A stretch of 9,647 nt of DNA from a virus (Duplodnaviria > Heunggongvirae > Uroviricota > Caudoviricetes). The stretch lies in the IMG/VR virus record IMGVR_UViG_2534681656_000013, one strand, 5' to 3'. Position numbers and translations under genes: made by a program. Under the pieces are notes generated by a model. It did no database searches and had not been told where the DNA came from. It worked only from the letters and a program-made list of their open reading frames with translations. Below, in pieces: positions 7,090 through 7,842 of this stretch (positions within the stretch are counted from its first letter, which is position 1; the number at the start of each line of letters is the position of its first letter).

Positions 7090-7400
7090 CCCCGAAGGTG
7101 AACAATCCACTGTTCACCCTTCACCGTATATTCACCCGTTATCACACTGAAATTAAAAGAGAAAAACGAAAGGTGAACAGTGTGAACAATCAAATCAAAA
7201 AAAACTTTTTTTCTTCCTGTGTGATTTTCAGTGCGGAGGATTAATCACCGGTATGAGTCACACCGGCAGAATGCCGGAGGTGAAGAATCGAATGTTCACC
7301 CTTCACCCATTATTCACCACCTATCCAACTGAAATAAAAGGAGAAAACAGAAAGGTGAACAGTGTGAACAGTTCTTCCGAAAAAAAATTTTTTTCCTGAG
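7090..7400 (+). repeat. crr: crr-like cis replication region: two roughly 140-bp direct repeat units (182-bp period) carrying type I iterons in both orientations
   Basis: GGTGAACA at 7097-7104, 7172-7179 and 7354-7361; TGTTCACC at 7111-7118 and 7293-7300; degenerate copies at 7181-7188, 7279-7286 and 7363-7370. Motif positions repeat with an exact 182-bp offset. Each unit ends in an A/T homopolymer tract. Confidence 0.7.
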
Positions 7401-7523
7401 TTAACGTGCGTGAAGATGCGTGTAAAAATTAATCGATAGATATTATATGTATAAGGATGTGTATAAATGAATTAGAATAGAAAAATATAAACGATTTAAA
7501 TCAAATGGTTATATGTCAATTTT

Positions 7524-7544
7524 GACTCCTGTGATCTTCCGCCA
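7524..7544 (+). other. Attachment-site core: 21-nt stretch matching the 3' end of tRNA-Sec (selC), ending in GCCA; no upstream tRNA body
   Basis: GACTCCTGTGATCTTCCGCCA matches my recollection of the selC 3' terminus (...GGTTCGACTCCTGTGATCTTCCGCCA). The match breaks immediately upstream (caattttgactcc versus caggttcgactcc), so this is a 3' fragment or att core, not a tRNA gene. It lies about 300 bp upstream of a P4-family integrase. Confidence 0.65.
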
Positions 7545-7842
7545 ATTAACATCTTCTGAACTCTCCCGATGTCAACCACCCTTTCTAATCCCTTGTATAT
7601 CAGGATTCCTTTGTATCCAGAAGTCAACCGACTTCACCCCGTATCAAGTTGCTTTTGGGGGTACTTTAGGGGGTATTATTTCCTATTGAAATATCAGCAC
7701 CCCCATAATTGGTAAAATATGATATATAACAACGGCTTTCAACAACATCTTTGTTATACAAGGGGTGCATTGGGGGTATCAGGTTAATTACTGGCAGAAG
7801 TCCCCCTCAGGAACATGAATTCATTAAAAGCCGGAGGATGTC

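Follow-up and report, generated by a model that had tools for sequence, protein, structure and literature searches.

We analysed a 9,647-nt stretch of DNA (IMG/VR record IMGVR_UViG_2534681656_000013; hereafter the window) in which a P4-like satellite is followed by a short piece of the tRNA-Sec gene selC and by an integrase gene. On gene content, the element is beyond doubt a P4-like satellite: psu, delta, sid, alpA/vis, epsilon and alpha are found in P4 order together with cos and the cis replication region (crr). The stretch between the outer edge of crr and the integrase open reading frame (ORF) starting at 7843 is made up of a satellite-side attachment arm, a 21-nt selC 3' fragment, and the integrase's leader. 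A previous sequence-only reading implicitly treated 7400-7842 as a selC-type attachment region (attP) of the satellite, paired with the adjacent integrase, and proposed a new specificity variant of P4. In this study, we found that 7524-7544 is very probably the right-hand attachment site (attR) of a P4-like prophage integrated at selC, and that the region is a tandem array of two elements sharing one tRNA core.

Results

The sequence GACTCCTGTGATCTTCCGCCA at window positions 7524-7544 (+ strand) corresponds base for base to the final 21 nt of tRNA-Sec, CCA included. All 21 nt matched the annotated 95-nt tRNA-Sec genes used as references, those of enterotoxigenic E. coli (ETEC) H10407, O145:H28 RM13514, and O157:H7 FRIK2455, so that the selC match noticed earlier is correct. 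Identity to selC ends at base 22 upstream of the core (T vs C), and the A at 7545 is one further base common to all att copies aligned. The attR core is thus 7524..7545 (+ strand), comprising the 21-nt selC 3' end and the shared A. ARAGORN found no tRNA gene in the window, and the selC piece there is therefore a 3' fragment only. An Rfam scan of 7350-7900 gave a chance miRNA match alone (E = 0.22, far under the gathering score). The attP core of P4 is the 3' end of leuX. The annotated P4 core GAGTCCGGCCTTCGGCACCA (NC_001609) had no counterpart in the window, and the closest stretch was mismatched at 7 of 20 positions. The absence of a leuX-type core, as previously claimed, was thus upheld.

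Related contigs were retrieved by exact-protein look-up with the 777-aa alpha of the window. The window corresponds to positions 5290-14936 of E. coli contig L008 (GCA_000355515.2, AQEX01000028.1), with 1 mismatch in 9647 nt. In L008, yicJ is followed by an intact tRNA-SeC gene (2105-2199, ARAGORN), a 395-aa integrase gene (2362-3549), two hotspot genes, and the satellite genes from psu to alpha. The contig continues with a second 21-mer at 12813 (window 7524), the truncated 278-aa integrase, IS2, IS66, a sulfatase-family gene, and a homologue of the dynamin-like leoA. The first 21-mer is located at L008 2179, inside tRNA-SeC, 10,634 bp from the second copy. Because the two 21-mers flank the satellite and the first lies inside an intact selC, 7524-7544 is interpreted as attR, the right-hand direct repeat of a 10,634-bp (10.6-kb) prophage. 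The left-hand site (attL), with the regenerated selC, is ~3.1 kb left of the window start. The position of the intact gene, which the sequence-only reading had proposed to check, is 10.6 kb upstream of the attR core and outside the window. The satellite's own integrase (395 aa) is encoded at the psu/cos end beside tRNA-SeC, ~3 kb left of the window start and likewise outside it.

Contigs with an identical alpha always showed the satellite adjoining yicJ and selC. The same satellite, with the identical 777-aa alpha, is present at selC with the island absent in L005-L007, L009, and L010. The same island start is found directly at selC, with the satellite absent, in H10407 and 025542-1. Seven att copies were aligned, and GACTCCTGTGATCTTCCGCCAA was present in 7/7. 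The attR copies of the window, L008, L005, and L010 do not differ left of the core. To its right, the seven copies split into three unrelated continuations, namely the island leader (window, L008, H10407), the native or another flank (L005 and L010, where the satellite is at selC and the island is absent), and the leader of the satellite's own integrase (attL copies). A separate alignment with O157 and O145 likewise showed a switch of partner at the core. As judged from these alignments, homology changes partner exactly at the core, as site-specific recombination would predict. In O145:H28 RM13514 (L003 16001-16222), the attR core lacks one base (TC-TCCGCCA). Since the exact 21-mer in this strain is confined to intact selC, its attR appears to be decaying.

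The interval 7300-9647 and the junction 7380-7600 were searched against 5426 complete E. coli genomes. Matches to 7300-9647 start exactly at the core (7521 or 7524) and extend to the window end. The H10407 match to window 7521-9647 differs by a single 1-nt indel (99.9% as listed), and the locus is annotated there with tRNA-Sec, a 396-aa tyrosine integrase, an IS3-family (IS2) transposase, a TPR protein, a phosphoethanolamine transferase, and leoA. Full-length matches to the junction 7380-7600 were obtained at 91-94% identity in O145:H28 and O157:H7 genomes. The satellite-arm/core junction is present in at least 165 of the genomes searched (at least 80% of 7380-7600 covered). The order in O157/O145 is tRNA-Sec, a 391-395-aa integrase, one or more variable defence genes (GapS4a or anti-phage dCTP deaminase), psu, delta, sid, and alpA through to alpha, and then the junction. 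Beyond the junction, the locus of enterocyte effacement (LEE) follows directly in O145:H28 RM13514, and a second integrase and then LEE follow in O157:H7 FRIK2455.

We compared the two arms that meet at the core. The satellite-side arm at 7394-7523 (+ strand) serves as the P arm in the reconstructed attP. It has no homology to P4, and P4-like prophages integrated at selC in O157:H7, O145:H28, and other strains carry a near-identical copy. The arm carries a tandem ATRTGTATA pair (7445..7468, + strand; starts 7445 and 7457, 12 nt apart) ~56 nt from the core. A fixed pattern of this motif was found in 5 independent loci: one pair lies beside the satellite's own integrase, ~110 nt downstream of selC, an inverted copy overlaps the start codon (ATG) of that integrase, and another pair lies ~56 nt upstream of the attR core. 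ATRTGTATA was not found in the 14-kb H10407 locus, which is without the satellite. The two pairs lie 56 and 110 nt from the core, compared to 53 and 112 nt for the annotated arm repeats of P4. From their position and repetition, the ATRTGTATA repeats are putative arm-type binding sites of the satellite's own integrase.

The integrase-proximal arm or leader of the resident selC island at 7546-7842 (+ strand) is identical to the selC-int interval of ETEC H10407. TNGGGGGTAY occurs in it as a tandem pair at 7654-7677, 109 nt from the core, and as a third copy at 7769-7780. These repeats, again by position and repetition, are candidate integrase binding sites. An inverted GCACCCCCAT sequence sits between the repeats of 7654-7780. 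TNGGGGGTAY resembles the annotated TTGGGGGCAT arm repeats of P4 more closely than ATRTGTATA does, and by arm motif the island module appears to be the more P4-like of the two. A passage of PMC6174562 describes a TTTGGGGGTACTTTAGGGGGT repeat, in slightly varying versions, near both ends of a selC island. As the left arm carries ATRTGTATA and the right arm TNGGGGGTAY, the arms come from two distinct recombination modules.

The integrase gene following the leader (7843..9034, + strand) is frameshifted, with ORFs at 7843-8679 and 8558-9034. One inserted nucleotide (GG at 8637-8638, where H10407 has a single G) leaves a 278-aa ORF and a downstream fragment. The extra G was found only in the window and L008, and the gene is intact in H10407 and 025542-1. 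The rest of the 2.1-kb stretch is identical to H10407; the extra G is either a real pseudogenisation or a draft-assembly error. Once the frame was corrected, the protein was 100% identical to the integrase of the H10407 island. Its identity to the second, island-side enzyme of O157 FRIK2455 was 95%, against 68-70% with the integrases that the satellites of O157 and O145 carry themselves and 45% with P4 Int. The satellites' own integrases in the O157/O145 relatives are ~40% identical to P4 Int. The comparison with P4 Int and with selC-island integrases had been suggested earlier, and it points away from the satellite. The integrase at 7843, previously taken by implication for the satellite's own, matches the neighbouring island's enzyme and is best assigned to the island, whereas the satellite has its own 395-aa integrase beside selC. 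The island integrase is probably inactive in the window.

The island integrase and the satellite's own integrase matched the same generic integrase model, both under its curated cut-off, and PF13356 (arm-type DNA binding), PF22022, and PF00589 are on record for both products. When the island integrase was used as query in a large protein search, the names obtained were all of the generic 'tyrosine-type recombinase/integrase' sort, from across Enterobacterales, and none carried a phiR73 label. When the satellite-type integrase was searched against a phage collection by tblastn, no record exceeded 80% identity, 2 of 714 were in the 60-80% band, and the matches listed were below 50%. Megablast of 7400-7842 against the phage collection, in which phiR73 seems to be missing, gave no match. 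Downstream of the integrase, the end of an IS2 element (IS3-family; 9400..9647) runs off the window. Its insertion point is the same as in H10407, which suggests common ancestry of the island, IS2 insertion included, with that of H10407.

The remainder of the window is occupied by the P4-like block, and its earlier recognition was fully borne out. Positions 58-7393 are 98.1% identical to P4 (X51522 11624..4291) in the same gene order, covering psu, delta, sid, ORF88, cI, epsilon, orf151, orf106, alpha, and crr. The cos cohesive-end sequence GTGCTTTCCCCGCCTCGCC at 39..57 corresponds to P4 bases 1-19 in reverse complement and adjoins the P4 right end without a break, P4 homology beginning at 58. 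Window positions 1-38, just beyond the cos 19-mer, diverge from P4, consistent with a variable hotspot that starts right at cos. The late/hijacking operon (222..2117, - strand) consists of psu (222-794), delta (868-1368), and sid (1365-2117), whose ORFs show 98% identity to the annotated P4 genes. The left operon (2651..7045, + strand) was assigned from ORFs, P4 identity, and the genes and Pfam records of L008. It contains ORF88/vis-AlpA (2651-2917), the cI region/Ash-Icd-like gene (2914-3513), epsilon (3506-3793), orf151 (3786-4241), orf106 (4377-4697), and the alpha primase-helicase (4712-7045), whose product is 777 aa long. The Pfam Psu, Ogr_Delta, Phage_AlpA, Derepression, and primase domains match the identical proteins.

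The crr with its TGTTCACC-type iterons was located at 7094..7393 by P4 homology, the left boundary being approximate. P4 homology stops at 7393 (P4 4291), which is the outer edge of the annotated crr (120-bp repeat). The position 7393/7394 thus marks a sharp limit of the int/att module that is exchanged. Moura de Sousa and Rocha define the P4-like core set as int, psu, delta, and sid together with alpA, epsilon, and alpha. The prophage size of 10,634 bp vs 11,624 bp for P4 would be compatible with P4-type small-capsid packaging that depends on a P2-like helper.

Directly left of window position 1, L008 3544-5289 contains two cargo genes between the satellite's int and cos. They match the PADLOC candidate defence system components PDC-M18A (E = 2e-34) and PDC-M18B (E = 2e-14). 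No NCBIfam match was obtained for them, and neither a Pfam match nor a reverse transcriptase (RT) domain is on record. The window begins one base past the start codon of the 386-aa cargo gene. A defence hotspot between int and psu of P4-like elements is described in a passage of Rousset et al. (PMC9122126). Three further satellites (L014, L016, and L018) have an identical 190-aa Psu but a different 421-aa integrase and Kiwa-like (KwaA/KwaB) cargo. They are located at non-selC sites, two of them adjoining CP4-type toxin-antitoxin islands. These satellites illustrate how int/att modules are swapped between close relatives. Integrase-module exchange among P4-like elements and the clustering of integrases at chromosomal hotspots are both described in PMC8628076.

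Discussion

The results indicate that 7400-7842 is best understood as a composite of the satellite arm (7394-7523), the attR core (7524-7545), and the arm of the resident island (7546-7842). The view that selC rather than leuX supplies the satellite's core therefore stands, but 7400-7842 is not an attP of its own paired with the adjacent integrase. The satellite attP, consisting of the P arm (7394-7523), the 22-nt core, the P' arm, and the satellite's own integrase, would have recombined with the selC 3' end. This recombination would have regenerated the tRNA gene at attL and left the 21-mer as attR. The satellite would thereby have been inserted between selC and an already resident H10407-type (leoA) island. 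The attR core stands directly before the leader of the island's integrase, the frameshifted integrase, and IS2. Excision would need the satellite's own integrase and the ORF88/Vis-AlpA homologue (2651-2917), as established for P4, and the satellite may still be mobile.

The reading of 7400-7842 as the attP of a circular, plasmid, or permuted form of the satellite, with the integrase at 7843 as its own selC-specific enzyme, deserves attention because alpha/crr, attP, and int adjoin in this order and orientation in circular P4. The integrase is also of the P4 family, 45% identical to P4 Int, and has P4-like GGGGG arm motifs. However, in L008 the satellite is a chromosomal prophage flanked by direct repeats, with its own integrase encoded at the opposite end, and from the core rightward the sequence is that of the H10407 island, the same IS2 insertion included. 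The arms carry different motifs, the right one being identical to the H10407 island leader, and the adjacent integrase is frameshifted and 68% identical to the satellite-associated integrase of O157 FRIK2455. In addition, a passage of PMC8628076 reports no plasmid case among >1000 P4-like elements surveyed. We therefore consider this reading very improbable. A chance resemblance of the 21-mer to selC has a practically negligible probability, as none of 200 dinucleotide-preserving shuffles of the window contained a match even with 3 mismatches permitted, and in several genomes the position of the 21-mer is precisely that of the homology switch between elements. We also rejected the idea that the satellite had been duplicated in tandem, as the second integrase is of a different lineage and is followed by island genes.

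The prophage attR in a tandem array thus remains the preferred interpretation, and the question then concerns how the array was assembled. We suppose that the satellite came after the island, because the island is decayed (IS2, IS66, frameshift) and the called genes of the satellite are all full length. The opposite order is unlikely but carries some weight; here the satellite would have occupied selC first, and the island would later have used the attR copy of the core, not the intact tRNA gene, as its integration site. Both orders yield an identical final arrangement, and all 22 nt of the shared core are retained in the attR copy. What this copy lacks is the upstream tRNA half, which as a rule takes part in attB recognition. 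The greater decay of the island, including its frameshifted integrase, compared to a satellite that is 98% identical to P4, also argues against this order. It is somewhat less likely still that the array was imported whole, or assembled by homologous recombination of the selC region from another strain. Similar tandem arrays occur in other lineages, and the conserved selC flanks (yicJ, yicI) could act as recombination substrates. However, the exact combination of this satellite with the H10407 island was not found among the 5426 complete E. coli genomes, where the best full-junction matches were 94%, and import would leave the nature of the 21-mer unaffected.

Several points weigh against the interpretation given here. 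The structure alone is compatible with either order of arrival. Excision and integration are deduced from sequence, and a role of the arm sites is suggested only by where their motifs lie and how they recur. The frameshifted state of the island integrase, seen only in the window and L008, could stem from an error of draft-genome assembly.

Two P4-family integrase lineages, 68% identical, share a 21-22-nt selC core with wholly different arm motifs. Tandem occupancy creates a hybrid att site composed of the satellite P arm and the island P' arm. There is a slim chance that the satellite integrase and Vis could excise, delete, or help to mobilise the adjacent ETEC virulence island through hybrid att sites or the outermost cores. 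If such hybrid sites, or the outermost pair of cores, were recombinogenic, satellites would be drivers of selC island turnover.

The arrangement also calls for caution in annotation. An integrase beside alpha/crr of a P4-like element usually belongs to the neighbour in a tandem tRNA array, and an 'attP-like' stretch between alpha/crr and such an integrase is a composite of the arms of two elements. The window provides a clean example of a P4 int/att module boundary at the outer crr edge. In agreement with the caution on annotation, a passage of Moura de Sousa and Rocha (PMC8628076) puts the frequency of an integrase beside alpha at <1% of P4-like sets and relates such cases, tentatively, to an adjacent mobile element that has its own integrase. 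The proposal of an undocumented specificity variant has to be withdrawn. A P4-like satellite at selC has been documented since 1991 with phiR73 (Sun, Inouye and Inouye 1991, as cited in passages of PMC6174562 and PMC7266877), and the junction is common in sequenced E. coli.

The element shares its gene order with satellite P4 (X51522 / NC_001609) and is 98.1% identical to it from cos to crr. The reconstructed attP also has the layout of the P4 attP, with a tandem pair of arm repeats on either side at almost equal distances, plus an inverted copy where int starts. In contrast to P4, the whole int/att module is replaced outward from the crr edge; the selC 3' end takes the place of the annotated P4 attP core, and ATRTGTATA that of the TTGGGGGCAT arm motif.

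The prophages upstream of LEE in O157:H7 and O145:H28 have the satellite arm, the core, and the tandem logic of the window. They differ in their downstream neighbour, which is LEE instead of an H10407-type island, and in their hotspot cargo (GapS4a, dCTP deaminase). The cryptic prophage 933L of EDL933 is reportedly P4-like and located upstream of LEE at selC, as Perna et al. are said to have described in 1998. Our literature search on 933L, and on P4-like satellites with tRNA-Sec, found nothing.

The selC island of ETEC H10407 is named 'toxigenic invasion locus A' in a passage of PMC6174562. Window 7521-9647 represents its first 2.1 kb (selC 3' end, leader, integrase, and IS2) except for one inserted base, and the sulfatase-family gene and the dynamin-like leoA homologue of L008 match further downstream. 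The H10407 island lies right next to intact selC and has an intact integrase, whereas in the window the satellite is interposed and the integrase is frameshifted.

Retronphage phiR73 depends on P2 as a helper. It is likewise a P4-like prophage in E. coli selC (Sun, Inouye and Inouye 1991; Inouye et al. 1991), as the title of the 1991 paper cited in PMC6174562 and PMC7266877 says. The cargo of phiR73 is retron Ec73 (msr/msd and reverse transcriptase), whereas the L008 element carries PDC-M18 genes and no RT. The element of the window thus belongs with phiR73 in kind, but the absence of a retron sets it apart from phiR73 itself.
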